This document shows, in pieces, positions 9,429 through 61,669 of a DNA stretch of 64,000 nt (position 1 is the stretch's first letter; each line of letters opens with the position of its first letter). This DNA is from an uncultured Candidatus Saccharibacteria bacterium (GTDB taxonomy: Bacteria; Patescibacteriota; Minisyncoccia; Phycocordibacterales; PALSA-1337), in contig CAZQUI010000003.1 of NCBI GenBank assembly GCA_964596595.1, forward strand, positions 979 through 64,978. Direction: 5' to 3'. A program made the position numbers and the translations under genes. Under the pieces are notes generated by a model, which saw only the letters and a program-made list of their open reading frames with translations, ran no database searches and was not told the origin of the DNA.

Positions 9429-10703
9429 CTAAAGTGGCAAATTAACTGGTGCCTCAGCTTTTTTAGATGAAACACGTTCTAATCCTGGTGTAGCAGCCAC
9501 AGATCCTGGTAGATGATATAAAGTAGCCAATTCTTCAGCGTTAAGTATCATTGGTTTACTTTTGTAAGGTTCATAAAAATACCCTCGACGTTTATAAGCT
9601 TTCAAAAATTGAATTGAAGCAAAATTTTTACGTTTACCTTTGTAATCTTCCCAAGGGTAACCCTTAAAACCTGACGGCCCAGCACTTCCCGGTTTAAAAC
9701 CATTTAGATTCTCCGTTGAAAATTGTTTAAAACTAGCAATAACACCACCAACTCCAAATGGTGTATTAAAAACATCTTTTTTTGCTAAATACATTGTTCT
9801 AATACCCACATCAAATGCCACTTTACTTAAGCTTCGTTCTATTGCCGCTATAGTATCTTGTTCTCCTTTTGAAAGAGTTGGTTGAATAGTTATTCCAGAT
9901 TTTTCATCTTTTTTTCCCGCAACTTTAGTTTTAGGATCACGTTTCATCATTTCGTTAACTATTTTCTCTGCGCTATCTTTCCAAACATCAGTTTTTTTCC
10001 ATAGATGACCTGGTTTAATTTGATCTTTTTTGTGAGCTCGAACAATAAACTGGAACCAGACTTGTTGATTTGGACCAACACTTCCTAAAAATTCTAATAC
10101 CGGAACTAAAGGATCGACTTTGTATTCTTCTTTTGGATCTCTGTCTAAACCATAATCTACATAAGTTTTAATTGGATAAGCATCATTTTTTACTAATTCA
10201 AATTCTGTTCCCCACATTTTCATTGTTTCAGGATCAAAGTGAACTGATTTTGCATAATCTTCTTTATCGATAATTTCTATGCCAGGAAATTGAGAATATA
10301 AAGCGGACATTACTCCTCCTTTGCGGCGATCTTCACACCAAATAAAAAATTTAACTTGCCCTTCAATTGAAATTAATTCCAGAGAATAATATGGTCGATA
10401 TTCTCCCTTCCAAAATTGAGTATAGAGACTACCATCTGCTGTATTGTGAATTGCATGAAGAAAAGTCTCCATGGCAAGAGGAGATTTGAAAGTATCTTTT
10501 GGAAGACGTAGTTCCAAAGTGGCATATTTTAGAGAAAGATAAAATTTTGATCTAACATAGCGAACCCATAGTCCAGCCAAAATACTGGCCAAAATAAGAG
10601 TCAGTATGACCGGTGATACATAGATCACAAATTGAATAACTTGAGGTAATAGATCCGTTTGAAATTCTTTTATTAGAGTAGCGATAGACTGTTCAATAGT
10701 CAT
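9429..10703 (-). CDS. hypothetical membrane protein (one N-terminal TM helix, large soluble domain)
   Basis: TM segment VIYVSPVILTLILASILAGLWV and no Walker motif. The C-terminal motif ...LNAEELATLYHLPGS looks family-like but I cannot name it. Confidence 0.45.
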   Translation of the reverse strand: MTIEQSIATLIKEFQTDLLPQVIQFVIYVSPVILTLILASILAGLWVRYVRSKFYLSLKYATLELRLPKDTFKSPLAMETFLHAIHNTADGSLYTQFWKGEYRPYYSLELISIEGQVKFFIWCEDRRKGGVMSALYSQFPGIEIIDKEDYAKSVHFDPETMKMWGTEFELVKNDAYPIKTYVDYGLDRDPKEEYKVDPLVPVLEFLGSVGPNQQVWFQFIVRAHKKDQIKPGHLWKKTDVWKDSAEKIVNEMMKRDPKTKVAGKKDEKSGITIQPTLSKGEQDTIAAIERSLSKVAFDVGIRTMYLAKKDVFNTPFGVGGVIASFKQFSTENLNGFKPGSAGPSGFKGYPWEDYKGKRKNFASIQFLKAYKRRGYFYEPYKSKPMILNAEELATLYHLPGSVAATPGLERVSSKKAEAPVNLPL

Positions 10704-10802
10704 ACTAGATTATTATAGCAAATAATAAAAACCTGAGATATGGAGAATACTTATTCAAAAAAACAAAAAATGAAACAGTTGAGTGTTTCATTTTTTGTAC
10801 TT

Positions 10803-11849
10803 TTACTTATTTTCTACTGGGTAATATTTACCATCCTTATCTCGTCTAAAGTGTTTTGGATTTTGAAGATTTACAATAATAGTATTTTCTTTTACGTAGC
10901 GTTCTTTCATAACCTTATCGATAATTTCTTCTTTTGTCATTGGACCATTTTTATCAATAACTGAACGAATTACGTCTCTAACTACCCCTGGGGCATATCC
11001 CCATTCAGCCAAGGCATACAATCCTCGACCGACTAAAACAAATCGAGGATCTTTAATGAGTTCGTTATGGGTTGTGGCAATGTGAGCCTTTTTGTTAAAA
11101 ATTTCAGTAATTTGCTTTGCCACATCACGAAAGTGAATTGGTGAACCATGTTTACGAACTACCAAGAATGCATAATCACGCATTCCTTTTGTTTTAATGT
11201 TTGAAGATTGAGAAATACCCCAGTCACCAAGAGCATTTTTACCAACAATTTTTGAAAGATGCAGCCAACGACGAACAACCTCCTGATTTTTATGTCGTTC
11301 AGAAACTTCTTCAAGATGACGAAGGAAACGGCTAACCATTTCTGATTCAGGTAAAAGTTCCTGATTACTAAGATTGCTATATAGTTTAGTCAAAGCGTCT
11401 TCGACTTTATGGGAGAGTTCTTCATTTACATGCCATCGATGACGGAAATTATCATCTTCTTTTTTCTTACGAAATGGTTCACCAACAACCAAAAGAAAGT
11501 AAATGTGATTTTGTAAACTTTTATCTTTTGATATTGATCCGAGAAAATCATCTTCAACAACAATACCTCCCAAAGAATGAAGTAAGGTTTCAATTTCGGC
11601 AAAAGCACTTTTTTCCTGTTTATACTCTTCTGATTTACGAATATTCATTATTCCATAGTTCTCGATTTGTCGAACTCGTTCACGAGTAATACCGTATTTT
11701 TTACCAATAGCATCGAGAGTCATACGCTTAGAATCCTTTCCTAAACCATAACGAAAAACCAAGATATCATATGCCCTTTCTGGTAAAGAAGAGAGCAGAC
11801 GTTTTACAACTTGCTTAGGCTTAAATGAAATTGATATTGAAGTGGCCAT
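10803..11849 (-). CDS. DNA-binding protein with an N-terminal sigma-70 region-4-like HTH and a C-terminal HARE-HTH-like domain
   Basis: N-terminal LPERAYDILVFRYGL...MTLDAIGKKYGITRERVRQIE resembles sigma-70 region 4. C-terminal MRDYAFLVVRKHGSPIHFRDVAKQITEIF resembles the RpoE-delta / HARE-HTH module. Confidence 0.5.
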   Translation of the reverse strand: MATSISISFKPKQVVKRLLSSLPERAYDILVFRYGLGKDSKRMTLDAIGKKYGITRERVRQIENYGIMNIRKSEEYKQEKSAFAEIETLLHSLGGIVVEDDFLGSISKDKSLQNHIYFLLVVGEPFRKKKEDDNFRHRWHVNEELSHKVEDALTKLYSNLSNQELLPESEMVSRFLRHLEEVSERHKNQEVVRRWLHLSKIVGKNALGDWGISQSSNIKTKGMRDYAFLVVRKHGSPIHFRDVAKQITEIFNKKAHIATTHNELIKDPRFVLVGRGLYALAEWGYAPGVVRDVIRSVIDKNGPMTKEEIIDKVMKERYVKENTIIVNLQNPKHFRRDKDGKYYPVENK

Positions 11850-49767: not shown

Positions 49768-50163
49768 ATGAAAAAATACTTTCAAAAATGGCACGATAAA
49801 AAATCCGTAATTGACCAAATCGAGAAACGTCCCTTTTTCCACGAAGGTGAGATTTGGTGGTGCACTCTTGGGGTGAATATAGGATTTGAGCAAGACGGCG
49901 GAGGCGATGATTATCTTCGTCCGGTAATTATCTATAAGAAATTCAATAATGAGGTCTTCTGGGCTATTCCACTTACTCATACTAATAAGAAGACCAAATA
50001 TTACTTCCAGCTCACAAAAGAAAGTGATGCTCCAACGAGTTCGGCTATTTTGTCCCAAATACGCTTAGTAGATGCAAGGCGCTTGAGCCACAAGCTTAAG
50101 GTTAATGTTAGTAAAGATGATTTTTCTGCCTTAACAAAAAAATTCAAGACATTGCTACCTTGA
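49768..50163 (+). CDS. MazF/PemK-like endoribonuclease toxin-fold protein, with no adjacent antitoxin ORF
   Basis: GEIWWCTLGVNIGFEQDG...RPVIIYKKF...VFWAIPLTHT...IRLVDARRL matches the PemK/MazF pattern (RPvlV...v.P.TS...R). Confidence 0.5.
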   Translation: MKKYFQKWHDKKSVIDQIEKRPFFHEGEIWWCTLGVNIGFEQDGGGDDYLRPVIIYKKFNNEVFWAIPLTHTNKKTKYYFQLTKESDAPTSSAILSQIRLVDARRLSHKLKVNVSKDDFSALTKKFKTLLP

Positions 50164-50427: not shown

Positions 50428-50943
50428 TTAAAAATTGAGTTTAACGTTTTTTCCACGATATACTAAATAGATTCCCTTCCAACAATTACAAAGATTAACA
50501 TTTTGAACTGCCCAAGCGGACAGTTCCTTGTCTAAAGTCTCCCAATCACGTCCACCAGTGCTCAGCACATCAATAAGTAGAACTGTGTTGGAATCAGAAC
50601 GAATTGATTTTTTATCAAGCGTGCCTCTTAACAAAATTTCAGCGACGTTACTAATGTCTCGTATTATGAAATAAAGAACACTCTTAGAAGTAACTTGGAG
50701 ACGTTCTTGGGCTGCTTCCTTGTCTCCTTCAGTAATTTGATAATTAATGCCGTTATATCTTATATCTGTTGGCTCTTTTTTATTTAAATCAATGAGTGTT
50801 TCGTTAAAAATAACTGATTTATTATCAAGAAACTTTTTCAGTGTCTCCAATTCTACATCGTCTTGTGTAACTATTTTTGAATGATTCATATACCACTTGA
50901 AGTCCAACCCTATTTCAACCACTCCTCGCATTAGCTCGAGCAC
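50428..50943 (-). CDS. hypothetical cytosolic protein (171 aa)
   Basis: ORF only. It starts at GTG (50943) or at the internal ATG (50931). A long imperfect inverted repeat overlaps the start. Confidence 0.45.
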   Translation of the reverse strand: MLELMRGVVEIGLDFKWYMNHSKIVTQDDVELETLKKFLDNKSVIFNETLIDLNKKEPTDIRYNGINYQITEGDKEAAQERLQVTSKSVLYFIIRDISNVAEILLRGTLDKKSIRSDSNTVLLIDVLSTGGRDWETLDKELSAWAVQNVNLCNCWKGIYLVYRGKNVKLNF

Positions 50944-50999
50944 TGAAATTTTATAGTCACTTCGTTATTATGTACTTCTCGCAGTGCTCTGCTCGAAGC
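50934..50999. promoter_or_regulatory. imperfect inverted repeat overlapping the start codon of the 171-aa ORF
   Basis: gctcgagcactg ... (36 nt) ... cagtgctctgctcgaagc. Confidence 0.35.
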
Positions 51000-51134
51000 A
51001 AATTTTTACGCTTAAAAATTTGGCTGGAGGCACTGGACCAAGTCAGAACTATTATCTTAGAAGGCCGAACGCACTTTGCTTTCAGAAAAGATTTAGCTCT
51101 TATTTGACCCCACCCCGTATATAACTATATTCTC

Positions 51135-51767
51135 TCAAACTTTCTCTAAATAAGAAATGATTACGTCTGTACCCTCCTGAAGGACTCTTACTAACATACG
51201 AGCATTTAGAGACCTTATTTCTTTTTTCTTACCCCTATCCTCAACCCAAGGAACATTTGATATTGAAACATGGTCGAGATTTGATCCTTTACGCCAAACC
51301 ATAGTCCATTCCGTATTACTATCCTTTTCGTGTAGCACATGATTTCTATATCTAAAGGTCTCATGTACATGAATTATCTTTTCCCCGCATGAAGACCAGA
51401 ACTTCTTAAAATCATCAGGCTGGTTCTCTAGGTTTTCCGAAACTGTTTTTACAAAAACACCTATCTTTGTCCAATCTATTTTAGGTGTCGCAGGAATAAA
51501 TAAGGAAGCTATATAAAGCAGCGACTCAGAAAACACTCTACCAAACACATACATAGATTTTAAGTCCAAACCAAGTTGGGTTATATCTTTATCCAAATCA
51601 GCCTTTTCTATTCTTTTCCAGATTATCTCTAAATAATGCCAATCTTTTAGGAGCACACTAAACTGCTTATTAAATTTATTTTCTTTATGAACCCTGTGGT
51701 CCTTAATGGTATTTATGTGTGCCTCAAATTTTCTTATTCTGTCATACAGAGTAGTAATTTCATTCAT
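51135..51767 (-). CDS. hypothetical cytosolic protein (210 aa)
   Basis: ORF only. It contains RNHVLH, a weak Rx4H HEPN-like string, near the C-terminus; this is speculative. Confidence 0.5.
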   Translation of the reverse strand: MNEITTLYDRIRKFEAHINTIKDHRVHKENKFNKQFSVLLKDWHYLEIIWKRIEKADLDKDITQLGLDLKSMYVFGRVFSESLLYIASLFIPATPKIDWTKIGVFVKTVSENLENQPDDFKKFWSSCGEKIIHVHETFRYRNHVLHEKDSNTEWTMVWRKGSNLDHVSISNVPWVEDRGKKKEIRSLNARMLVRVLQEGTDVIISYLEKV

Positions 51768-51782
51768 AAGTTTAGTAACTAA

Positions 51783-52670
51783 TCAGCGAAAGGTTCCAGT
51801 GATATAGCTCGTAACTTCTTGTGACGTATCACCCAATAATTCTCCTGAGTTAGTGTTGTGATCAAGAGTGAAAATGCCATGACCAGTTTTCTCCATAAGC
51901 ATTATAAGAAGTGCGATTGATGCGGCTGAATCGGTATACTGACTTTTAAGTTTAAGCAGTCGGTCTATGTCTTTTGTTCGTATAACCTCCAACGTCACCT
52001 TATCCCTCTCTGAGGCTTCTTCTGCAGTAAGGTGATGAGAGAAATCTACAGGAGCAATTACCACAGCACCATCGCTTACGTACTTCTCAAGCGCATTTGC
52101 GAGCTCCTCTAACTCAGGTTTAGTAATGAGAGCGCTTAGCACCAAGGGAACAACTTTTGCCTGAGGAGTAAAGTAACTTACATAAGGCATCATGCCCTGA
52201 GTAGAATGTTCTTCTACCATAACCTCGTTGTTAAAAGAAACCAGGTTCTTTTGATGTAGGCTATCAAGAATTTGCCGATCAGTTTTCACAACTCCGAATT
52301 TTGTCTCCCAATCATTTGGACTAGAAATTACGAGTGCATTACCTTTCTCATAATGGTTTGGTCCTATTAAGATGATTGTTTGAGGACTTTGTTTAGCGAG
52401 GCGAGCAAACAACTCTCCAATAAGTGATCCTGCGACTAAGTGATGTGGAATAATACCACCCACAAACGGTACTTCGGTCCCTATCGTTCCTGGAACTGGT
52501 AACCCATCGTAAAAAGCCTTTTCTTCCCAGAATTTTACTGGCAAAGGACTGCCTACGGGTTCATTGGAGATGTTTCTTGTAGGAGAAGTCTGTTGATTAC
52601 GAGAAACAAGAACAATGAGAACTAGAAGGATGACAACCGCTCCTGAAATAATTGTATATCGTGACCACAT
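51783..52670 (-). CDS. MEMO1-family (AmmeMemoRadiSam system protein B-like; class III extradiol dioxygenase fold) protein with an N-terminal TM anchor
   Basis: GGIIPHHLVAGSLIG aligns with the MEMO block IIAPHAGYTYCG. LIGPNHY aligns with ILGPSHH. IAPVDFSHHL aligns with VVSSDFCHWG. The C-terminal Gly-rich end is similar to MEMO. N-terminal TM ISGAVVILLVLIVLV. Confidence 0.6.
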   Translation of the reverse strand: MWSRYTIISGAVVILLVLIVLVSRNQQTSPTRNISNEPVGSPLPVKFWEEKAFYDGLPVPGTIGTEVPFVGGIIPHHLVAGSLIGELFARLAKQSPQTIILIGPNHYEKGNALVISSPNDWETKFGVVKTDRQILDSLHQKNLVSFNNEVMVEEHSTQGMMPYVSYFTPQAKVVPLVLSALITKPELEELANALEKYVSDGAVVIAPVDFSHHLTAEEASERDKVTLEVIRTKDIDRLLKLKSQYTDSAASIALLIMLMEKTGHGIFTLDHNTNSGELLGDTSQEVTSYITGTFR

Positions 52671-52673
52671 TCT

Positions 52674-55600
52674 TTATTGAGGTAAATTAGGAGGAGTTAT
52701 TTGTTGCTTTTGTTTATATCGACGTACTCCGATAAATGCTCCGGCTGCTGCAAAAATAACTACGATAGCAATAAGAATGTTACTTCCATTTGAACTTGAA
52801 GATGAACCTTCAACAGCAGCTGTTCTTGGGTTATCATCGATAGTGACTTTTGTTGCACCGGTTCGTCCGTATACATCTGGATCGTACATTAGGAATGCAG
52901 TTGCAGGTGGAGTGTTATATACACCTCGACTTATAACCCGAGCTTTATAAGTAAATTCGACTATTCCATCATCCACATAATCAAATGATGTGATCATACC
53001 TTCCTTAGTAATCTCTTGAGCAGAAGGATAATCTCGTCCATCATAATAATTTCCATAGAAATCATTTGTAGACGAATATTCATTCTTGAACATTGGATTT
53101 ATTGGAACTAATCCCGCAGGCAATACATCTTCAATGACTAAGTATCGGCTACCAGCAGGTAGGCCGCTAACTTTCAGTCTTACTTCAACTGTTTGTCCTA
53201 CAAGGAAATCACCTTTGTAGTTTCGTTCCATTTTTAGATTATCCGCAACAGGCTTTGGCTCTCGATTTGTTTTGAATTCATCTACAACAAGAGTAGAGTA
53301 GAGTTCTCCTTGACCTGACTTTCCAATTGAAAGTTGCTGGCTTCCTGAAGTAATAGAGGTTATTGGAATAGAAATAGTTATCTCCTGGGTTAATGAATTG
53401 ATTTTACCCTGAGCAATATCTTTGTCTCCTAAACGGACCTGGTAATCGACATTCGGAGTTGTGCCACTGTAAATTTTTGAGAAGTCAGTAAGTGCCTCTA
53501 TTACCTGCGCAGTTGCAAAACTATTTCTCCAATATTCACGTGGTCGATTTTGATATAAATAACGAGCCGCTTGCTCAGCTTCATCTTTTTCACCAGCTAA
53601 GGTTAAAGCTCTAAGAGCTAGGGCAGTTGAAGCTTCAACTGATGGGAAAAACTCGCTATGTCCAGCTGTCCAATGGATCGTATTTTCAGAACGTTCAGCT
53701 TTGTTGATTAGTTCATTGACACCATTTTTTGAATTATCAGTGTAGCCATTTCTAATGTTTGAGATAATAGCAAGAGAAAGAATGTCTGGAGTAACATTTC
53801 TGAAATCTGTAAGCATTACTTTGCCCTTATCTGACCCAAGAAGGGAGAGTGTATAGATTTTAGCAATGCGAATTGAAGGGTCTGTTTCTTTGTCGATTTC
53901 ATACTCAAATCTTTGTTTTGTTCTATTGAGAATTGCTGCATCGACATCATACCCAAGACTTCTAGCTCGTACTAAATACTCAGTCGCATAAGCTGTGACA
54001 AAAGGATTGATCTCTCCCCATTGCCACCAGGTCCATCCACCTCCTGGTTGCGCTAGATCAGTCAATCTTTCTATTCCTTTCTCTACCATCTCATCCAAAT
54101 CGTTACGTTGTATAAATGATCCGAAAAGATCAGAATGTTCTTTCGCTAGAACAGCAGGAATAAATCGACTTGTTGTTTGTTCAATGCAACCATAAGGATA
54201 GTTGACCAAGTACTCCATCGCAGTTGGTAGTGTTCCTAAGAATGAAGAAGCTAAAGACAATGTCGCTTTCGATTTTGTTGGGCTGGCACCTTCACTAAGA
54301 GCTAAGGGGAACATTGCAGAATCCCGACCTACTTTTGCATACTTTTCAAAGAAGCCAAACTCCTCAACAGGTAGAGGTACCGTTACGGAATCTCTTTCAC
54401 CTGAGCCTTGTTTTTCAACTGATACATTCACTGTGGCAGCAGGATCAGGTGTTGTTGGGGTAACTTTCCAGAGAAGATTTTTTAGACCTCTTATTGGCAG
54501 ATCAAAGGCTTGAGTTGAGGAACCAAATGCTGTGAAGTTGAAAGAAGCTAGGAAATTTCCAGGCGAATCAGTAAAGTTGTGAGCAATTGATGCTAGTTCA
54601 AAAGTATCTCCCGCTCGCAAGAAATTAGGTAATGCTGGACGTACTATTACTGGTTTGGTAACCACGATTTCAGTTCTAGTTTCACCTACCTGAGTAAGAT
54701 TAGTAACGGCCACCGCATTCATAACCCAAGTCGTTAGATTATCCGGTAGTGTAAAGGTGACAGAGGCGCGACCATTAACATCTGTACGAACTGATGGATT
54801 CCAGTATGCTGTGTCCTTAAAAAGGGTCCTGCTCTCACCATCACCTTTATCATTATGTACCCAAATATTTCCAGCAAAGTAAGTGTGGTAACGTTCAATC
54901 TCAAGATTGTATACAGGCGTAACTCCTCTTTGCCATTCGATTGAACCAATAGCTAATTCCTCTCCTTTAGATGTAGTTACCTTATCTCCAATTTGAATAT
55001 CGCCAGCTACAGTCCATTTGTCATTTACCCAGAGTACATGTTCTGGAGTCACTTTCAAATCATGGTTGAGAATCAAGTAACCTGGAACAGTTGTCTCGTG
55101 AACAGCTTTTATTTTCGCACGAACTAATGTTGAGCTGTCATTACTTTCTTTGGTAAGAACAGTGTCTCCAACTTTTAAATCTTTTATAGGTACAGACCCA
55201 TTAGGAGTAAGAACTAGAGTGTCTCCAACAAAGCATCCTTTTTCAGCACCATTTGAAGAAATACCTTCAAATGAATGTGCGAAAGAAGTGGAGTTATAAC
55301 GACGATACCAAAAGGCATCGAATATAGGCTGACGAACTTCATTCATGAGCTCATAGAGGGATTTATCTACAGTCCATACTGCTACATCTGCCGACAAAGG
55401 ATTACCATTTACATCCGTAGTTGTTAAATCAAGCGTTACCTTTTCACCTGGAGCATACTTAGTGACATCTTCACGTAATTTAAGTGCAACAGCGACTTTT
55501 TTACTATCAGCCGAGACGGTTAGATCTTGAGTATTGTAATCAAAACTTTCTCCTGAAAAACTTGAAGCAGTAACAATGATATTTGGGATGTCTGTTGATA

Positions 55601-57752
55601 TTATTGGAACGGCCACTTGAGCAGATTTCCCCTTAAGTACTGCAATTTGGTAGCGATGAACACCATCACGTTCCAGCGACACAAAGACGTCTCTATCTGA
55701 AACTTCTGAAGTAATAGTGAACTGTGCTACTTCCCCTGGTTTATATTCTTTCTTATCAGCAGTGAGTGAAATTTTCTTCTGATATTGATTGTCATAGACT
55801 AATTCATTTTCTGATACTACCCATATTGAAAATTCTCGCTCAACCCGATTACCCCTACTATCAATATAAGAAACTTTGAAGATATGAGAGCCTGGATTAT
55901 TTGGAACGAAATTAATAACTGCTTCACCATTGGCATTACTTGTAACAGTAAAATTCTTTAATGACTCCGTATGGTCCTCATAGACAAAGAGAGGGCTGTA
56001 CTTACCTGGTTTACGGTCTGGATTTATTTTTCTTGTCCACCAATGTCTGCGTGGTTCAACTGAAAGTTGGACTCCTGACACAGAAGCGTTCGAATTAGCT
56101 AGAAGCTTTAATGGGAGAGAAATAGGTTCTCCAACTCTTGAACCGTAGCGATAAGATGATCGATAAACCGAATATTCACCAGCATGAACCAGTACATTTT
56201 TCTTGGTAACAGATGGGTTTCCGCTCTCATCAATGTAGCTGGCCTCGAAAACAAGAACGTGATCCTTACCATCAGATAATGCAGGGAGATTACGAGTGTC
56301 TAATTCGACAGAGGTCATGCCTTTTTCATCGAGCACAACACTATCTTCTTTGATTCTTTGCCCTCCCCAATACCCGTATTGGTATCTATCATCAAGATTA
56401 GTGCTAGAAGATGGAGAAAGGTAATAGTCACTTTCATAAAAATCAGCTGATGACACTGTGTACTTAACAGTTTGATTTGAAATAGGCTGACCAAAGAAAT
56501 ATTGACCAGAGATTGTATATTGAGCTTTATCACCTCTGATAATCTCCGGTGTATTCGTATCAACATTTATACTGTATTCAGGTTTTCTATAATGCTCCAC
56601 ATAAAAGGTAGTCAGACCACGCAACCATTGTGTGCGTTCTATTTCTTGATTTGTTGCAACCTCAACCTGATAGAAGCCAGTCGGTGAGGATTCTGGTAGA
56701 ACATATGATCCAGAAACTGTTCCCTCTGGGGATATTGGAATGTCACGTTCATATACGGCCTCATTCGTATCGTAATTTCGCAATACTCGTACATGTGCTG
56801 TTCCTGAAGGGATGGTGTAAGTAGCGTCATTATCATTTCTGACAATTGCTTTGAAATATACAGTATCGCCTGGCTTATAAAGAGGGCGATCGGTAAAAAG
56901 ATAATATTTTCGAGAAATAGTATCTGGACCAAAATCTTCGTACCTATATGAACTTGGCAAATTCAAGACCAGTAAAGCTAAATCATTGCCAGAACTTATT
57001 AAAGCAATGTCTCCTGCTTTATTAACCGGAAGACGAGCAACGCCTGTAGCATCAAAATTAGCTGAGCCGATTGTTGTCGGTGTATTTTCTAGATTGTAGA
57101 CGGCTATAGAACCCGAACCGACACTTTTTCCTGTACGTAATGATTGCTGCCAAACAATCAAATCATTATTACCTTCTCTTATTAGTCCTCCGATGTTTGA
57201 TCGGAGAATCACTGCATCGTTATAGGAATTATCATCCATCGTTGCACGTACCAACCAGAGACCAGTATCACTTATCGGAAGACTGACTTTTTGTTCTGCA
57301 GCTCCAGCATATGAAAGTTCAGTTACAAACTCCAAACCAGCAATGTCGAATGGTTTGGTATTGTAGTTTTCATACCCATTCTGATTCTTTTCTTTTGTAT
57401 ACGTTAAAAATTTAAGTAGATCTTCTTTATCAATACGATATAACGAAACTTTTAGTTGCTTGTGGAGTACTAGTCCATTGTAGTACTTCGAAATATTTAC
57501 AGCGGGTTCTTCGCTCGGTCCAAGAACGATGACTGACTGCGAACCATAATTGTTCTCTTTGTTTGCATTTGTAATTCGAATTTCTCCTGATCGCGACAAA
57601 CCCTGTGCGTATGGAGCCAAACTTACAAAAGCTATTACTGCTAGTACAAAAAAGCCAGCTAAAGAAACTCGACCTTTGCTGGTTTGAAACTGCTTTTTTA
57701 ATAAAAAACCTATCTGACTTAAGCGCTGGACCAGGCGATGACCATTTTTCAT
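52674..57752 (-). CDS. bacterial alpha-2-macroglobulin-family protein with a thioester (CIEQ), an embedded Hint/BIL domain and a C-terminal TM anchor
   Basis: Thioester-domain signature LVNYPYGCIEQTTSRF (Cys codon at 54186-54188). GGWTWWQW and the alpha/alpha-toroid region lie downstream. The N-terminal half is long and beta-rich (MG-like). Signal/TM at the N-terminus. C-terminal ILIAIVVIFAAAGAFIGV followed by RRYKQKQ. The start is placed at MKNGHRLVQ; the track ORF begins 57 nt upstream at 57809. Confidence 0.8.
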   Translation of the reverse strand: MKNGHRLVQRLSQIGFLLKKQFQTSKGRVSLAGFFVLAVIAFVSLAPYAQGLSRSGEIRITNANKENNYGSQSVIVLGPSEEPAVNISKYYNGLVLHKQLKVSLYRIDKEDLLKFLTYTKEKNQNGYENYNTKPFDIAGLEFVTELSYAGAAEQKVSLPISDTGLWLVRATMDDNSYNDAVILRSNIGGLIREGNNDLIVWQQSLRTGKSVGSGSIAVYNLENTPTTIGSANFDATGVARLPVNKAGDIALISSGNDLALLVLNLPSSYRYEDFGPDTISRKYYLFTDRPLYKPGDTVYFKAIVRNDNDATYTIPSGTAHVRVLRNYDTNEAVYERDIPISPEGTVSGSYVLPESSPTGFYQVEVATNQEIERTQWLRGLTTFYVEHYRKPEYSINVDTNTPEIIRGDKAQYTISGQYFFGQPISNQTVKYTVSSADFYESDYYLSPSSSTNLDDRYQYGYWGGQRIKEDSVVLDEKGMTSVELDTRNLPALSDGKDHVLVFEASYIDESGNPSVTKKNVLVHAGEYSVYRSSYRYGSRVGEPISLPLKLLANSNASVSGVQLSVEPRRHWWTRKINPDRKPGKYSPLFVYEDHTESLKNFTVTSNANGEAVINFVPNNPGSHIFKVSYIDSRGNRVEREFSIWVVSENELVYDNQYQKKISLTADKKEYKPGEVAQFTITSEVSDRDVFVSLERDGVHRYQIAVLKGKSAQVAVPIISTDIPNIIVTASSFSGESFDYNTQDLTVSADSKKVAVALKLREDVTKYAPGEKVTLDLTTTDVNGNPLSADVAVWTVDKSLYELMNEVRQPIFDAFWYRRYNSTSFAHSFEGISSNGAEKGCFVGDTLVLTPNGSVPIKDLKVGDTVLTKESNDSSTLVRAKIKAVHETTVPGYLILNHDLKVTPEHVLWVNDKWTVAGDIQIGDKVTTSKGEELAIGSIEWQRGVTPVYNLEIERYHTYFAGNIWVHNDKGDGESRTLFKDTAYWNPSVRTDVNGRASVTFTLPDNLTTWVMNAVAVTNLTQVGETRTEIVVTKPVIVRPALPNFLRAGDTFELASIAHNFTDSPGNFLASFNFTAFGSSTQAFDLPIRGLKNLLWKVTPTTPDPAATVNVSVEKQGSGERDSVTVPLPVEEFGFFEKYAKVGRDSAMFPLALSEGASPTKSKATLSLASSFLGTLPTAMEYLVNYPYGCIEQTTSRFIPAVLAKEHSDLFGSFIQRNDLDEMVEKGIERLTDLAQPGGGWTWWQWGEINPFVTAYATEYLVRARSLGYDVDAAILNRTKQRFEYEIDKETDPSIRIAKIYTLSLLGSDKGKVMLTDFRNVTPDILSLAIISNIRNGYTDNSKNGVNELINKAERSENTIHWTAGHSEFFPSVEASTALALRALTLAGEKDEAEQAARYLYQNRPREYWRNSFATAQVIEALTDFSKIYSGTTPNVDYQVRLGDKDIAQGKINSLTQEITISIPITSITSGSQQLSIGKSGQGELYSTLVVDEFKTNREPKPVADNLKMERNYKGDFLVGQTVEVRLKVSGLPAGSRYLVIEDVLPAGLVPINPMFKNEYSSTNDFYGNYYDGRDYPSAQEITKEGMITSFDYVDDGIVEFTYKARVISRGVYNTPPATAFLMYDPDVYGRTGATKVTIDDNPRTAAVEGSSSSSNGSNILIAIVVIFAAAGAFIGVRRYKQKQQITPPNLPQ
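54852..55235 (-). other. Hint (intein-like / BIL) domain of about 128 aa inside the A2M-like protein (residues about 859-986 of the track ORF)
   Basis: Block A is CFVGDTLVLTPNGSVPIKDLKVGD. Block B is LKVTPEHVLWV (TxxH). The C-terminal blocks are VYNLEIERYHTYFAGNIWVHN, ending His-Asn. The next residue is Asp rather than a Cys/Ser/Thr nucleophile, and there is no homing-endonuclease insert. Confidence 0.7.
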
Positions 57753-57789
57753 TTTAATTGTAATTAATAATTGAGAACAATTTATAATT

Positions 57790-58906
57790 CGATGGCTAAA
57801 CTGTAGCACAAAAACGTTTTACATGTCGAAATATTACTAGCCCAAAATATGTCAAAATGTCTCAAAACAAACAGCTCGACCCAAGAACAAGACAACGACT
57901 TCGCTGGATTGAACACTATAAGGAAATAACCAAACAAGTCTCTCTAACCTGCCGGTATTTCGGTATCAGTCGTGGCACGTTCTGCATCTGGTATCATCGT
58001 TACCTGTCGCTTGGGATTGAAGGTCTCAAAAACAAATCCTCAAGACCCCACAAGATCCACCCTTGGATACCAAAGGATGTGAGAGATACTATCATTGAAC
58101 TGCGCCTACAACGTAAATATGGTCCAATTAGGATGTCTTCGTATATCAAACAGAAATATAACTGGTTTGTCTCTGCCAGAACGATCTGGAGACTCTACAA
58201 GGAGCATGGGTTGAATCGTCTGAAATACAAGAAAAATTGGCAGAGGTATCCTCAGCACTACGCCAAACCTAATCCAGGCGACAGAGTCCAAATAGACGTT
58301 AAATTCCTTGATAGATTGGAAAATGGCAAACGATACTATCAGTTCACTGCCATTGATGACTGTACTAGATACCGAGTGCTAAGGATCTATGACCACAACA
58401 CTGTTCAAAATGCTTCCGACTTCATCGACAAAGTAAAGAATGCTCTACCGTTTGCGATCAAGCAGGTGCAGACTGACAATGGTAGCGAGTTTTCCGAGAA
58501 ATTCAGTTGGCATATGGATGACCTGGGCATTACACACAGGAAAACGAAGATTTGTTCGCAAGAAGAGAATGGAAAAGTTGAACGCAGTCACAAAACTGAT
58601 CAGGCAGAGTTCTACGGCATTAATCGTTTTGTTTCGATTGATCACTGTATGAAGCTTCTCAAACAGTGGGAGAAAGAATACAATGAGTACAGGCCTCACA
58701 TGGCACTCAAAGGAAAAACTCCTAGAGAATTTCTCGAAGAAAAACTACGAGGTCATGTGTCAAATCAGGCACTTACAGTGCCACTCAAAAGTGTTCAAGA
58801 GGTACGGAGAATTCTACATAGGGTCTGTGAATGACTTTTTGGGAAGTTCGAGCCCATGACTGGTTCTCAAAACTTCTTGATCGAAACGGCATTTTTAGCC
58901 GTCTCG
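57790..58906 (+). mobile_element. IS481-family insertion sequence
   Basis: Single rve/DDE transposase ORF. Candidate terminal inverted repeats are TCGATGGCTAAACTGTA (left, about 57791) and the reverse complement of CATTTTTAGCCGTCTCGA (right, about 58888-58906), which share TCGA.(C/T)GGCTAAA. The ends are approximate. Confidence 0.6.
57857..58834 (+). CDS. IS481-family transposase (integrase catalytic core, DDE)
   Basis: N-terminal HTH; catalytic D (QIDVKF), D (FTAIDDCTRY) and E (NGKVERSHKT); C-terminal YNEYRPHMALKGKTP typical of IS481/IS3-group integrase cores. Confidence 0.85.
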   Translation: MSQNKQLDPRTRQRLRWIEHYKEITKQVSLTCRYFGISRGTFCIWYHRYLSLGIEGLKNKSSRPHKIHPWIPKDVRDTIIELRLQRKYGPIRMSSYIKQKYNWFVSARTIWRLYKEHGLNRLKYKKNWQRYPQHYAKPNPGDRVQIDVKFLDRLENGKRYYQFTAIDDCTRYRVLRIYDHNTVQNASDFIDKVKNALPFAIKQVQTDNGSEFSEKFSWHMDDLGITHRKTKICSQEENGKVERSHKTDQAEFYGINRFVSIDHCMKLLKQWEKEYNEYRPHMALKGKTPREFLEEKLRGHVSNQALTVPLKSVQEVRRILHRVCE

Positions 58907-58923
58907 ATAGGTCTCACATGACT

Positions 58924-58994
58924 GCTGCGGGACTTGGATTCGAACCAAGATAAACGGCTTCAAAGGCCGCTGTCCTACCATTAGACGATCCCGC
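58924..58994 (-). tRNA. tRNA-Gln (anticodon UUG)
   Basis: Minus-strand cloverleaf: acceptor TGCGGGA/TCCCGCA; anticodon loop CT-TTG-AA; T-loop TTCGAAT; discriminator G; 71 nt. Confidence 0.85.
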
Positions 58995-59052
58995 AAAGAT
59001 GTGGTAATAGCTTATAGTTTTTATGACTTAAAGTAAATACACCACTTATTTA

Positions 59053-60087
59053 CTAAGTCTTACTACAAACTTTCACCACAGCCATCTCCAGTGGCAAAAT
59101 TTCTATATGGGCACGGCCGATGGCTTCGGCAGCTTCTAGAAAAACAGATAATATAATTGGGCTAAGGACTTTTTTATTTGCTTGCTCTGATACAAAATCA
59201 AAGTCATCTGCTGATATGCGATCTTTGATATATTCTTTTGAAGAAGGAGAATGTTGGACTAGCAATATATATCTCATTTTTTCTAAAAGCAAAGTTGCAA
59301 AAGTATTCATGGCAATGTTCATTTTATCTGCTTCCCCAAGAAGCTTTAGAGCACTGTCAGAATCACCAGAAATAACAGCGGCAATAAAACGATTGATCAA
59401 ATCTGCTCGAGGAGCGCCAGTGATCTTTTCAACTTCTTCCCGACTAATTTTTTTATCCCGAGCTCTGTCGAGGGAAACTGAAATAACTTTTTGCAAAGTA
59501 CCCAAAGCATCACGAAATGATCCATCACCCAAAAGAGCAATGAGATCTCCTGCTCCGGCGTCCAAGGTAAAGCCCTCTTTCTTTGCAATTGCGGTAACTT
59601 CTTTACGCAAAATCTCTCGAGTTGGCTTTCGAAAAGAAAAAGTCTGACAACGAGAAATAATAGTGTCTGGAACTTTATCGAGTTCGGTAGTCGCTAAAAT
59701 AAAGATCACATGTTGTGGTGGTTCTTCTAGAGTTTTAAGAAGAGCATTCCAAGCATCTTTGGAAAGCATGTGAACTTCATCGATAATATAAACTTTGTAG
59801 ACTGATGAAAAAGGCAAAGTAGAGACATGCTCACGAAGGTGTCGAATGTCGTCTATACCTCTATTTGAGGCAGCATCTATCTCATAGACATCCTCATCAG
59901 CTGTACCGATAGCTTTAGCAAATATCCGAGCGGTTGTAGTCTTGCCTGTTCCTCGAGACCCTGAAAACAAATAAGCATGAGCAAGCCTTTTGCCGGTAAT
60001 TGCATCTGATAAACCAGAGACAATATGGTCCTGACCAACAACTTCACTCCATTTTTGCGGACGATAGGTTCGATATAGTACTGACAT
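59053..60087 (-). CDS. dnaX: DNA polymerase III subunit gamma/tau, short form
   Basis: YRPQKWSEVVGQDHIV...LFSGSRGTGKTTTARIFAKAI; AAA+ clamp-loader motifs; 344 aa. Confidence 0.85.
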   Translation of the reverse strand: MSVLYRTYRPQKWSEVVGQDHIVSGLSDAITGKRLAHAYLFSGSRGTGKTTTARIFAKAIGTADEDVYEIDAASNRGIDDIRHLREHVSTLPFSSVYKVYIIDEVHMLSKDAWNALLKTLEEPPQHVIFILATTELDKVPDTIISRCQTFSFRKPTREILRKEVTAIAKKEGFTLDAGAGDLIALLGDGSFRDALGTLQKVISVSLDRARDKKISREEVEKITGAPRADLINRFIAAVISGDSDSALKLLGEADKMNIAMNTFATLLLEKMRYILLVQHSPSSKEYIKDRISADDFDFVSEQANKKVLSPIILSVFLEAAEAIGRAHIEILPLEMAVVKVCSKT

Positions 60088-60628
60088 GGCATTAGTTTAA
60101 CTCAAAAAACCAAGACTCGCTATTTATTTTTAATTTAACAAAAAATGGGACACATTCCCAAAGGAACATGCCCCATACACTACATTCTCTGAAGTTGACC
60201 CCGAAGAGTCATCGGGTATAGCTAAACTTTACCCTATTCAATTCAATGACGGAGGAAGCTTCTGCAAAACTTCCATTTTACTTGCCAGGCAACCTGACAA
60301 GCCTCAACTATTACTTTTATTTGGCTCCATAGATCATAAGTAGCACTAATCTACTTCAAAGCCTACAAAAAATAATAATTGACTACCTGAGTTAAAAACT
60401 CAAATAAATCATTTTCTTCAAAGAACTGCTGCAGGTTTCCACAGGCGCAATTACCAACCAACGACGGCCACCGAGACAGGCGCCCCACGACAGGGCACGG
60501 TATGGTTCTTCATTGATGTATTCCTTTTGCTAAGGTTTACGTGATGTTCCCATCGTTGACTCTGTACTTAGGTGCCCGAAGCATCCCTAAAACAGACCTC
60601 TTAACTGCCCAAAATAATACTAACAAAA

Positions 60629-61669
60629 TTAATTATTTTGTCTACCAATATATGCTCGAATAATTTTTCTAACTTCTTTGGCACTATTTGTTTCCATTAG
60701 TTGATTTCTCAATTCCTTTGCCCCATCCCAACCAGAAACGTAAGCTTTAAAATGTTTTTTCATAACCGCAAAACTCTTTATTCCTTTGAATTTCTTTTCA
60801 AATAAAGTTGTATGCTCAGCCAAAATATTTAATCTTTCTTCTGGATTTTTTGCTCTGTTTTCCATCTTTGATTTTTGATCTTTGATCTTTGATCTTTCAA
60901 AAAGCCATGGCGTACCAAATATTCCCCTCCCTATCATCACCCCATCACAACCACTTTCTTTTATCTTTTGATATCCATCGATAACATCTTTTACATCACC
61001 ATTACCGATAATTAGAGTGCGTTTTTCTGGCAATAAATTTGCTTGAATATGATCTCTTAATTTAACTATCTCAGGCATAATTTCCCAATGAGCCGGAACA
61101 TCAGACATTTCTTTACGGGTACGTAAATGAACAGTTAAAACAGGTAGATTTAATTTTAGTAATGTTTCTATCCAAGACAAATCAACTTTGTTATAACCGA
61201 TTCTAGTTTTGACTGTAACAGGAATAGCGTGGCCAACACCTTCTTGTGCAGCCCTTATAACCTCTATCGCCAGTTTTGGATTTTTGATCATCGAAGCTCC
61301 ACCGCCCTGTTTTTCGACAGCTCTATCGGGACAGCCCATATTTATATCCAAACCATTAAAACCTAATTCTTTCACCAATTTCGCTGCTCCTTTCATTGCT
61401 TCTGGATGACCAGTAAAAAGTTGAGCAACAATAGGTCGTTCTTGCTTTGAATATGCCAAATCTATTAAAAGTTTTTCTTTACCGGGAGACATGAGACCAT
61501 CGGCCGAAACAAACTCTGTCCAAACAACATCCGGCTTACCATATTTAACTATTATTTTACGAAATGCAGCGTCAGTAACATTGGCCATTGGAGCCAAAAC
61601 AAAAATAGGCCTTTTTAAAGACTCCCAAAAATTAGTTTTATTTTGCTTTTTCTTTATAACCATGTTCAA
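60629..61669 (-). CDS. dus: tRNA-dihydrouridine synthase
   Basis: FVLAPMANVTDAAFR...; catalytic Cys/Lys region NMGCP; TIM-barrel Dus layout. Confidence 0.85.
   Translation of the reverse strand: MNMVIKKKQNKTNFWESLKRPIFVLAPMANVTDAAFRKIIVKYGKPDVVWTEFVSADGLMSPGKEKLLIDLAYSKQERPIVAQLFTGHPEAMKGAAKLVKELGFNGLDINMGCPDRAVEKQGGGASMIKNPKLAIEVIRAAQEGVGHAIPVTVKTRIGYNKVDLSWIETLLKLNLPVLTVHLRTRKEMSDVPAHWEIMPEIVKLRDHIQANLLPEKRTLIIGNGDVKDVIDGYQKIKESGCDGVMIGRGIFGTPWLFERSKIKDQKSKMENRAKNPEERLNILAEHTTLFEKKFKGIKSFAVMKKHFKAYVSGWDGAKELRNQLMETNSAKEVRKIIRAYIGRQNN
60864..60898. repeat. five imperfect copies of a 7-nt tandem repeat (atctttg) inside dus
   Basis: ctttgatttttgatctttgatctttgatctttc, encoding KIKDQKSKMEN. 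Confidence 0.6.

Follow-up and report, generated by a model that had tools for sequence, protein, structure and literature searches.

Bacterial alpha-2-macroglobulins (A2Ms) are recognised as two types, the thioester/PBP1c type and the Mag type, both of which have been studied in Gram-negatives (PMC5764988). A 64,000-nucleotide (nt) stretch of DNA from an uncultured Candidatus Saccharibacteria bacterium (GenBank assembly GCA_964596595.1, contig CAZQUI010000003.1, positions 979 to 64,978), referred to here as the window, encodes an A2M-like protein whose gene is followed on the same strand by a gene for a Memo-family protein and by two further small genes. The locus raises the question of what a Memo-family protein does beside a macroglobulin, and of which neighbouring genes belong with the two. 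An earlier sequence-only reading of the window had proposed the whole block, together with an adjacent MazF-like gene, an insertion sequence (IS) and a tRNA gene, as a candidate for an undescribed system. One part of that proposal holds, in that the A2M-Memo pair is conserved; the 210- and 171-residue proteins, the MazF-like gene, the IS and the tRNA gene are not conserved with the pair and are unrelated neighbours.

The A2M-Memo adjacency is a strongly conserved, translationally coupled pair and no accident of the window genome. A scan at one genome per species returned 368 loci with relatives, and the best 80 of these were analysed together with earlier loci as a set of 85 non-redundant loci. 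An A2M-family open reading frame (ORF) lies upstream of Memo and on the same strand in 83 of the 85 (83 of the 84 informative loci; L047 has no upstream DNA), and all-against-all clustering of the ORFs leaves the A2M-like family as the sole one at a fixed position relative to Memo. The A2M stop and the Memo start overlap by 4 nt in 47/83 loci, and an overlap or a gap of at most 30 nt is found in 81/83; independent gene calls give the same overlaps. On long contigs, Memo homologues with 40-69% identity stand immediately downstream of an A2M of 1,650-1,750 amino acids (aa) in 6/6 distinct contexts, the flanks of which are otherwise unrelated (arginase, PheRS, serpin, PGA_cap, type IV secretion system genes, and LysM).

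The reverse test used 80 metagenome loci fetched by A2M alignment alone. Among A2Ms at least about 33% identical to the window A2M, Memo lies directly downstream in 29 of the 31 with enough downstream sequence. About 40 distant, classical-type A2Ms were also recovered; Memo is downstream of none of them, and three have a gene with a GT51 transglycosylase motif, as expected for PBP1c. Because the forward and reverse tests agree, the association is specific in both directions. The sequence-only reading had remarked that the A2M-like gene is paired with Memo and not with PBP1C and that related genomes should reveal whether such pairs are conserved. Both points are borne out: the downstream gene in the window is Memo, PBP1c-like genes occur only beside the three distant A2Ms, and the pair recurs in nearly all informative loci and close A2M relatives, as counted above.

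The Memo protein of the window is assigned to PF01875 (Memo) by a profile match far above the cut-off (E = 7.8e-29, 101.1 bits vs a cut-off of 27; residues 75-289 on profile positions 39-265 of 269), and it contains the PHH, GPNH, and VDFSHH blocks, which confirms the MEMO1-family assignment first made from the sequence alone. It also matches TIGR04336 (AmmeMemoSam_B; E = 9e-34, 116.9 bits vs a cut-off of 26), a 'hypoth_equivalog' model with a low cut-off. Residues H76, N105/H106, H155, D209, H212, and D247, among others, are invariant in 29 homologues, whatever the subtype of the partner A2M. H76, H106, D209, and H212 align with His-49, His-81, Asp-189, and His-192 of MEMO1 (within its APH, GPSHH, and DFCHW blocks), so the clade resembles MEMO1 and AmmeMemoRadiSam B (PF01875, TIGR04336) both in sequence membership and in the four metal-site residues that it keeps. 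Because the metal-site residues are invariant across partner subtypes, the role of Memo is tied to the macroglobulin core and not to the thioester or the Hint domain that some partners carry. After residue 40, Cys is absent in 112/120 Memo homologues, and the translated Memo protein of the window contains none; since the clade is practically Cys-free, the MEMO1 ligand Cys-244 has no counterpart in it. An invariant Asp-Ser (D247-S248) falls in the MEMO1 Cys-244 region, where the alignment is not established.

A hydrophobic segment starts near residue 5 in 108/120 Memo homologues, preceded by about two Lys/Arg residues and almost no acidic ones. The sequence-only reading had seen an N-terminal transmembrane (TM) helix in the window protein, which hydropathy supports (Table 1), and had left the side of the membrane to topology prediction. 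Such an N-terminus is typical of Sec signal peptides and signal anchors, and hydropathy and charge statistics accordingly predict that the Memo domain faces outward and is extracytoplasmic.

Public records name Memo homologues 'AmmeMemoRadiSam system protein B', and taken at face value this label offers one explanation of the locus: the window protein would be an ordinary AmmeMemoRadiSam protein B with partners encoded elsewhere, and its adjacency to A2M would be functionally meaningless. The TIGR04336 score and the public labels speak for it. In the loci examined, the proteins score above the HMM threshold and have neither the partners nor, by prediction, the cytosolic site of that system. 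Neither AMMECR1 nor a radical-SAM partner of the AmmeMemoRadiSam type recurs in the 85 loci. A recurring radical-SAM gene in five related Clostridia loci was considered as a possible link and set aside, as it is the pyruvate-formate-lyase activase beside PFL. Both partners are also absent from the window, as had been stated from the sequence alone: its ORFs of at least 120 aa contain no CxxxCxxC and no AMMECR1-type LxGC[IV]G motif. A Cys-free domain behind a signal anchor would moreover lie outside the cell and apart from any cytosolic radical-SAM enzyme, and canonical amrB genes are just 24-26% identical, compared with 33-45% within the Memo clade across phyla. Phage and plasmid searches with Memo returned distant canonical amrB genes only. 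With A2M adjacent in all informative loci except one, an ordinary protein B is very improbable. The Memo clade therefore differs from MEMO1 and AmmeMemoRadiSam B in being predicted to be exported or anchored and not cytosolic, in lacking a Cys-244 equivalent, and in its partner, which is A2M-like and sometimes joined by a CapA-like domain, with no AMMECR1 or radical-SAM partners in the loci. The public annotation of genes of this clade is likely misleading.

The A2M-like protein contains the Pfam domains MG2, bMG3, A2M_BRD, PT-HINT, A2M (MG7), TED_complement, and bMG10, with hydrophobic segments, by hydropathy, at its N-terminus (signal or TM) and at its C-terminus (TM anchor). Its residues are numbered from ATG 57752 unless the 1711-aa ORF is named. 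The layout of MG, BRD, A2M, TED, and MG10 domains with a CxEQ thioester, by which type I A2Ms are recognised, is present, with CIEQ at residue 1189. The 1692-aa protein has exactly two cysteines, Hint Cys1 (C840) and the thioester Cys (C1189), and because these are the only ones it has no lipobox. A GC[VIMT]EQ thioester is kept in the Patescibacteria-type partners of Memo, and the C-terminal anchor is kept in the thioester-type partners.

Type I A2Ms, such as ECAM/YfhM of E. coli and SaA2M of Salmonella, occur with PBP1c and have the same architecture of MG domains, bait region, MG7, TED with CxEQ, and MG10 as the window A2M. Their genes, too, form an operon of two with the gene of a single partner facing the envelope, but that partner is the peptidoglycan synthase PBP1c and not a Memo-family protein. 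Type I A2Ms are lipoproteins of the diderm periplasm, whereas the window A2M is without the lipobox Cys and has a C-terminal TM helix as its anchor. The hosts of the A2M-Memo pair also differ in being mostly monoderm, and the A2M of the pair has a short, conserved bait linker, into which a Hint domain is inserted in Patescibacteria. The type II protein MagD, encoded in magABCDEF of Pseudomonas aeruginosa (PMC5764988, PMC3735191), also depends on operon-encoded partners, including the single-pass MagB, and the Bacillota and Dehalococcoidia versions of the A2M-Memo pair resemble it in having no thioester. The window A2M, in contrast, has a thioester and a single Memo/LigB-like partner with a metal site in place of five Mag proteins, and the lineages differ. 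No multi-gene partner set recurs in the 85 loci, among which no search was aimed at Mag sequences.

In Pseudomonas, the macroglobulin MagD depends on MagB for its anchoring, its stability, and its processing (PMC5764988). By analogy, A2M and Memo may act as a membrane-bound complex in which Memo is a dedicated accessory subunit of the macroglobulin, and this reading has, in our judgement, about an even chance of being correct. Both proteins would be exported by Sec to the outer face of the cytoplasmic membrane, with the C-terminal helix anchoring A2M there and the N-terminal helix anchoring Memo. The two would be synthesised at a constant ratio and would work together in a membrane-bound complex, to which the Memo-like metalloprotein would contribute the stabilisation, maturation, or activation of the macroglobulin. 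At the cell surface, the macroglobulin itself would serve as a trap or sensor that is set off through its bait, and that of the window would combine a thioester warhead with a self-cleaving Hint domain that occupies the bait.

Several points weigh against an accessory subunit. L060 is a true exception among the 85 loci, with Memo and no A2M. A 592-aa Memo-PGA_cap fusion in L181-L183 (L181, 3372-5150; TM-Memo-PGA_cap order; Pfam 6.3e-26 for Memo and 1.4e-54 for PGA_cap) also stands without any A2M, and because of these loci Memo would seem able to work outside an A2M complex. In L134, an A2M is followed by PGA_cap (10448-11383) without Memo. Formation of the complex is suggested by translational coupling and by predicted co-localisation, and the topologies of both proteins come from hydropathy and charge statistics and not from a dedicated predictor. 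The strictly conserved metal site would also argue for catalysis over a purely structural, MagB-like role.

The invariant metal-site residues and the A2M-less loci L181 and L060 favour a different account, in which Memo, alone or with a CapA-like protein, is an independent metal-dependent envelope enzyme that is merely co-expressed with A2M ('defence plus repair'). Such an enzyme would act on wall, lipid, or polymer and would neither bind nor modify A2M; the literature model for A2M and PBP1c is of the same type (PMC5764988). A PGA_cap/CapA-like domain of the metallophosphoesterase fold recurs adjacent or fused to Memo. Its gene directly follows Memo in L007 (8880-9935)/L027/L106, L103, L109, L112, and L113, a Memo-PGA_cap fusion is apparently present in L025, L132, and L138, and PGA_cap lies nearby in several further loci. 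However, the PGA_cap/CapA-like protein is present in just about 15 of about 118 loci and absent from the window, no envelope-synthesis genes recur with the pair in the 85 loci, and a near-obligate adjacency in both directions with 4-nt overlaps is tighter than mere co-regulation would give. An independent envelope enzyme is a real possibility, on the less probable side. Gene order is inverted in two metagenome loci, in which Memo precedes a Hint-bearing thioester A2M (L127, 2608-9154; L132, 920-6729); the Memo of L132 is the one apparently fused to PGA_cap.

A 128-residue Hint domain occupies the bait position of the window A2M-like protein, between A2M_BRD and MG7. It matches PT-HINT PF07591, its best Pfam model (E = 1.1e-12, 48.9 bits vs a cut-off of 27.7, residues 865-987 of the 1711-aa ORF), and a PF07591 match is also present in precomputed annotations of orthologues. 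The junctions read GAEKG/CF...VHN/DKG, where the slash marks the boundary. The G/CF junction, the TxxH block, and the C-terminal HN liken the domain to bacterial intein-like (BIL), pretoxin, and Hedgehog-type Hint domains. Cys1 (C840), the TxxH block (VTPEH), and the terminal HN (VHN) are kept in 26/26 Hint-bearing orthologues, and by these conserved residues the window domain is probably catalytically intact. The +1 residue after the domain is D, Q, G, E, or A in the same 26/26 and never C/S/T. A canonical splicing intein, for which Cys1, TxxH, and HN are all in place, is excluded by the lack of a nucleophile at +1 in all 26. BIL and pretoxin Hint domains cleave at their junctions, and A-type BIL domains reportedly cleave or splice without a +1 nucleophile. 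Hint-less orthologues (L054, L070) run seamlessly through the insertion site.

Unlike known hosts of Hint domains, the window protein is a thioester macroglobulin, and it carries its Hint in the bait, the region whose cleavage normally springs the trap. In Hint-bearing A2Ms, the chain break that normally fires the trap may thus be endogenous or regulated. In complement C3, C4, and C5, an anaphylatoxin domain stands in the place equivalent to the bait, and the thioester becomes active once that domain is removed by proteolysis. The likeness is one of analogy only: the Hint inserted in the window protein would in principle be self-cleaving, and an external convertase would be dispensable. A Hint domain placed exactly where bait cleavage triggers a thioester trap could mean self-triggered covalent capture.

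The bait linker of Memo-paired A2Ms is short, covering about 55236-55250 and about 54828-54851 on the minus strand of the window. Its 'AE' dipeptide is invariant in 22/22 partners of both subtypes, at an overall identity of just 17-20%, and the alignment gives the pattern G-A-E-x-G-G ... G-G-x-x-R-x-x-F-x-D, with the Hint inserted exactly there. The short and conserved linker contrasts with the bait of classical A2Ms, which is described as a variable protease-recognition region (PMC5764988). These features favour a role for Memo as the processing or triggering enzyme of the conserved linker, in which it would cleave or modify G-A-E-x-G-G or control the Hint cysteine, and activation would be endogenous and regulated and not brought about by foreign proteases. 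Processing of MagD to its 100-kDa form, which depends on MagB (PMC5764988), is a further point in favour of this role. However, conservation of 'AE' could be structural, and A2Ms with a putatively self-cleaving Hint keep Memo just as those without one do, so the Hint is no simple substitute for Memo. In SCOP, the LigB/Memo fold is in the same fold class as several metal-dependent hydrolases, but we know of no Memo-family member that is a peptidase. A bait-processing Memo is accordingly rated as improbable, and the accessory-subunit reading is kept as the working account of the pair.

By record titles, the pair is found mainly in Patescibacteria (Woese-, Davies-, Levy-, Zambryski-, Morani-, and Saccharibacteria, and others), Bacillota (Clostridia, Peptococcia, Tepidanaerobacter, and Symbiobacteriaceae), and Dehalococcoidia. 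The Memo-paired A2Ms form two subtypes. Subtype 1, in Patescibacteria, to which the window protein belongs, combines the GC[VIMT]EQ thioester with a C-terminal TM anchor and in most cases carries a Hint domain. Subtype 2, in Bacillota, Dehalococcoidia, and some Patescibacteria, has neither thioester nor C-terminal anchor and carries an N-terminal Big_5 domain; its members still match Pfam MG2, bMG3, A2M_BRD, A2M, and bMG10. The restriction to monoderms is a tendency and not a rule, because a few titles of metagenome-assembled genomes name diderm taxa, with labels that are unconfirmed. L017, L020, L032, L036, L039, L043, L061, L078, and L091 carry cassettes of the Patescibacteria or Bacillota type and are titled Gammaproteobacteria, Nevskiaceae, Pseudomonadales, Mycobacterium leprae, or Acidobacteriota; such off-lineage titles may reflect mislabelling, mis-binning, or real transfer to other phyla.

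In six Peptococcia/Clostridia loci (Table 1), a gene for an extracytoplasmic function (ECF) sigma-70 factor overlaps the A2M-like start by 7-16 nt, and only in these six is the A2M-like TM helix preceded by a cytoplasmic N-terminal extension of 75-105 residues with a PAPLRxxF motif. The ECF sigma gene and the extended A2M-like gene have the layout of a sigma/anti-sigma pair, which suggests a surface sensor. In one Patescibacteria lineage, A2M-Memo is directly followed by a gene for a serpin, which is another kind of protease inhibitor (L004, 10996-12237; also L005 and L006).

These features can be joined into a broader reading, in which the pair is a third class of bacterial macroglobulin system, present in mostly single-membrane lineages and notably in the episymbiotic Patescibacteria. 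Its obligate partner would be an extracytoplasmic metalloenzyme of the Memo/LigB fold, sometimes fused to a CapA-like enzyme. In Patescibacteria, a self-cleaving Hint would replace the protease bait, so that the chemistry of the cell itself, and not a foreign protease, fires a thioester 'harpoon', and Memo would be the trigger or the maturation factor. In some Peptococcia, the module would be coupled to an ECF sigma factor and would sense proteases or damage at the surface. As a joint claim this reading is tentative and, with all its parts required, unlikely; if true, covalent bonds with a host cell or with the bacterium's own wall would become possible.

Surface proteins with A2M domains in the Candidate Phyla Radiation (CPR) have been mentioned in passing, with a possible role in protection against host proteases, and CPR surface proteins are credited with roles in attaching to host cells and in defending against them (PMC8080830). 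No literature was found on A2M with Memo/AmmeMemoRadiSam or on A2M with a Hint or BIL domain. The families are known; what appears to be new to the literature is the conserved A2M-Memo partnership, the Memo clade of predicted extracytoplasmic location, and the placement of a Hint domain in the bait. The pair adds a widespread third arrangement to the two recognised ones, in lineages where A2Ms have hardly been considered, including the CPR. A Memo clade with a fixed partner and a fixed, predicted site outside the membrane is also a testable handle on Memo-family biochemistry.

Table 1. Positions of the genes and protein features in the window, and loci with an overlapping ECF sigma gene. ORF coordinates are mechanical.
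Feature	Position	Strand	Details
A2M-like ORF	52674..57809 as mechanical ORF (GTG 57809); 52674..57752 from likely ATG	-	1692 aa
Hint domain of A2M-like protein	54852..55235	-	residues C840-N967; PF07591
Thioester motif C1189-I-E-Q within YPYGCIEQTTSRF	54177..54188	-	translation
C-terminal TM anchor of A2M-like protein, ILIAIVVIFAAAGAFIGV then RRYKQKQQ	52725..52781	-	KD19 = 2.59 at residue 1658
Memo-family ORF	51783..52670	-	295 aa; conserved partner of A2M-like gene
Signal-anchor helix of Memo protein, residues 5-23	52602..52658	-	KD19 = 2.74
Putative helical-bundle ORF with HEPN-like motif	51135..51767	-	210 aa; co-oriented, outside conserved pair
PD-(D/E)XK / PA4535-like-fold ORF	50428..50943	-	171 aa from GTG, probably 153-167 aa; outside conserved pair
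IS481-family insertion sequence	57771..58870; transposase 57857..58834	+	Pfam rve/HTH/LZ_Tnp_IS481 matches; local context only
ECF sigma overlap loci	L008 2367-2921, L040, L041, L085, L092, L096

The window ORF list contains four consecutive minus-strand ORFs with gaps of 3, 15, and 191 nt, and the gene positions and the two shorter gaps given in the sequence-only reading agree with it. That reading went on to combine A2M, Memo, the 210- and 171-aa proteins, and perhaps the MazF-like protein in one multi-gene surface-defence or stress system. The first four genes do share one strand, with short gaps among the first three, and the three small proteins look nuclease-like (a HEPN-like motif, a PD-(D/E)XK-like fold, and MazF). 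However, the 210-aa and 171-aa families are found in none of about 165 A2M/Memo loci, and their homologues occupy unrelated contexts (L011-L016, L097-L100, L181-L185) even at 87-93% identity. L014 (1690-7462) is syntenic with window positions 50428-61669 on the dus-dnaX side and keeps the 171-aa homologue in the same orientation, yet it has no A2M or Memo: BipA, a GIY-YIG fragment, and a 176-aa ORF replace the tRNA-IS-A2M-Memo-210aa segment. GC content differs as well, at 0.40-0.42 in the A2M and Memo genes and 0.34-0.35, equal to the genome background, in the 210-aa and 171-aa genes, and the 191-nt spacer separates the 171-aa ORF from the rest. A single system of this extent has next to no chance of being real. 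A promoter/terminator scan was at chance level (24 found vs 27 expected) and is of no use for an operon argument. Downstream of its stretch, L014 carries a gene for an Imm5-like immunity protein.

The 210-aa and 171-aa proteins had been described as cytosolic and without a recognisable domain, and both descriptions stand: neither matches Pfam, NCBIfam, PADLOC, or PHROGs, and neither has a TM-like segment (KD19 at most 1.35). The RNHVLH string noticed in the 210-aa protein is real, with R141, N142, and H146 invariant in 33 homologues. It fits the Rx4-6H motif of HEPN domains, and most of the distant relatives have R[ND]x3-5H at the equivalent position. A HEPN-like identity, which likens the protein to HEPN-domain RNases (e.g., RnlA/LsoA and HEPN toxins), is plausible but unproven. 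The family is rare and context-hopping: an exhaustive profile search gives 24 representative proteins, none with a Pfam domain, and phage and plasmid searches return no homologue. Homologues with 87%, 82%, 67%, and 47% identity follow genes for AIR synthase-like, CTP synthase, serine hydrolase, and DUF5677 proteins. The 47% member (L012, 5416-7624) starts 8 nt after the 525-aa DUF5677 protein, and in L011 a family member lies 20 nt after a 75-aa ORF; the DUF5677 protein and the 75-aa ORF may be cognate partners of the HEPN-like protein. Co-travel with Memo was considered and rejected. A homologue of at least 90% identity does lie about 1.8 kb downstream of the Memo-PGA_cap fusion in L181-L183, but it is separated from the fusion by two unrelated genes, and Memo is absent from the other contexts of 210-aa homologues.

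The 171-aa protein has fold similarity to PD-(D/E)XK / PA4535, which likens it to PA4535 (PDB 1y0k) and to PD-(D/E)XK nucleases such as CdiA-CT, with no sequence-level match in our scans. No Pfam match at E <= 5 is found for 14 members of the family, and a PDB sequence profile is also negative. One homologue (P0159) has a precomputed PF08682 match, and EPTD and QITEGDK motifs are invariant in the family. The GTG start of the ORF is doubtful, because most homologues are about 153 aa and begin at an internal Met (ATG 50889); the NCBI gene call starts at ATG 50931. The long imperfect inverted repeat that had been described over this start does not hold up, being just a 17-nt, 82% hairpin 50-85 nt upstream, which is unremarkable. 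A riboswitch or notable inverted repeat in the 191-nt spacer was likewise rejected, with no Rfam family and a weak fold (z = -2.0).

The solitary MazF/PemK-like gene lies at 49768-50163 on the plus strand (PF02452, E = 3e-9; phrog_9567, E = 2.8e-18), and the ORF list holds no obvious antitoxin ORF beside it. At the other end of the block, the start codon of the A2M-like gene is likely ATG 57752 and not GTG 57809. The ATG is preferred because candidate IS terminal repeats fall inside the GTG-started extension. These candidate terminal inverted repeats of the IS481-family element lie at 57771-57785 and 58856-58870 (TTGAGAAC.../...GTTCTCAA), and the element ends 19 nt upstream of the likely A2M start. 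A tRNA-Gln gene (58924-58995, minus strand) lies 54 nt past its far end.

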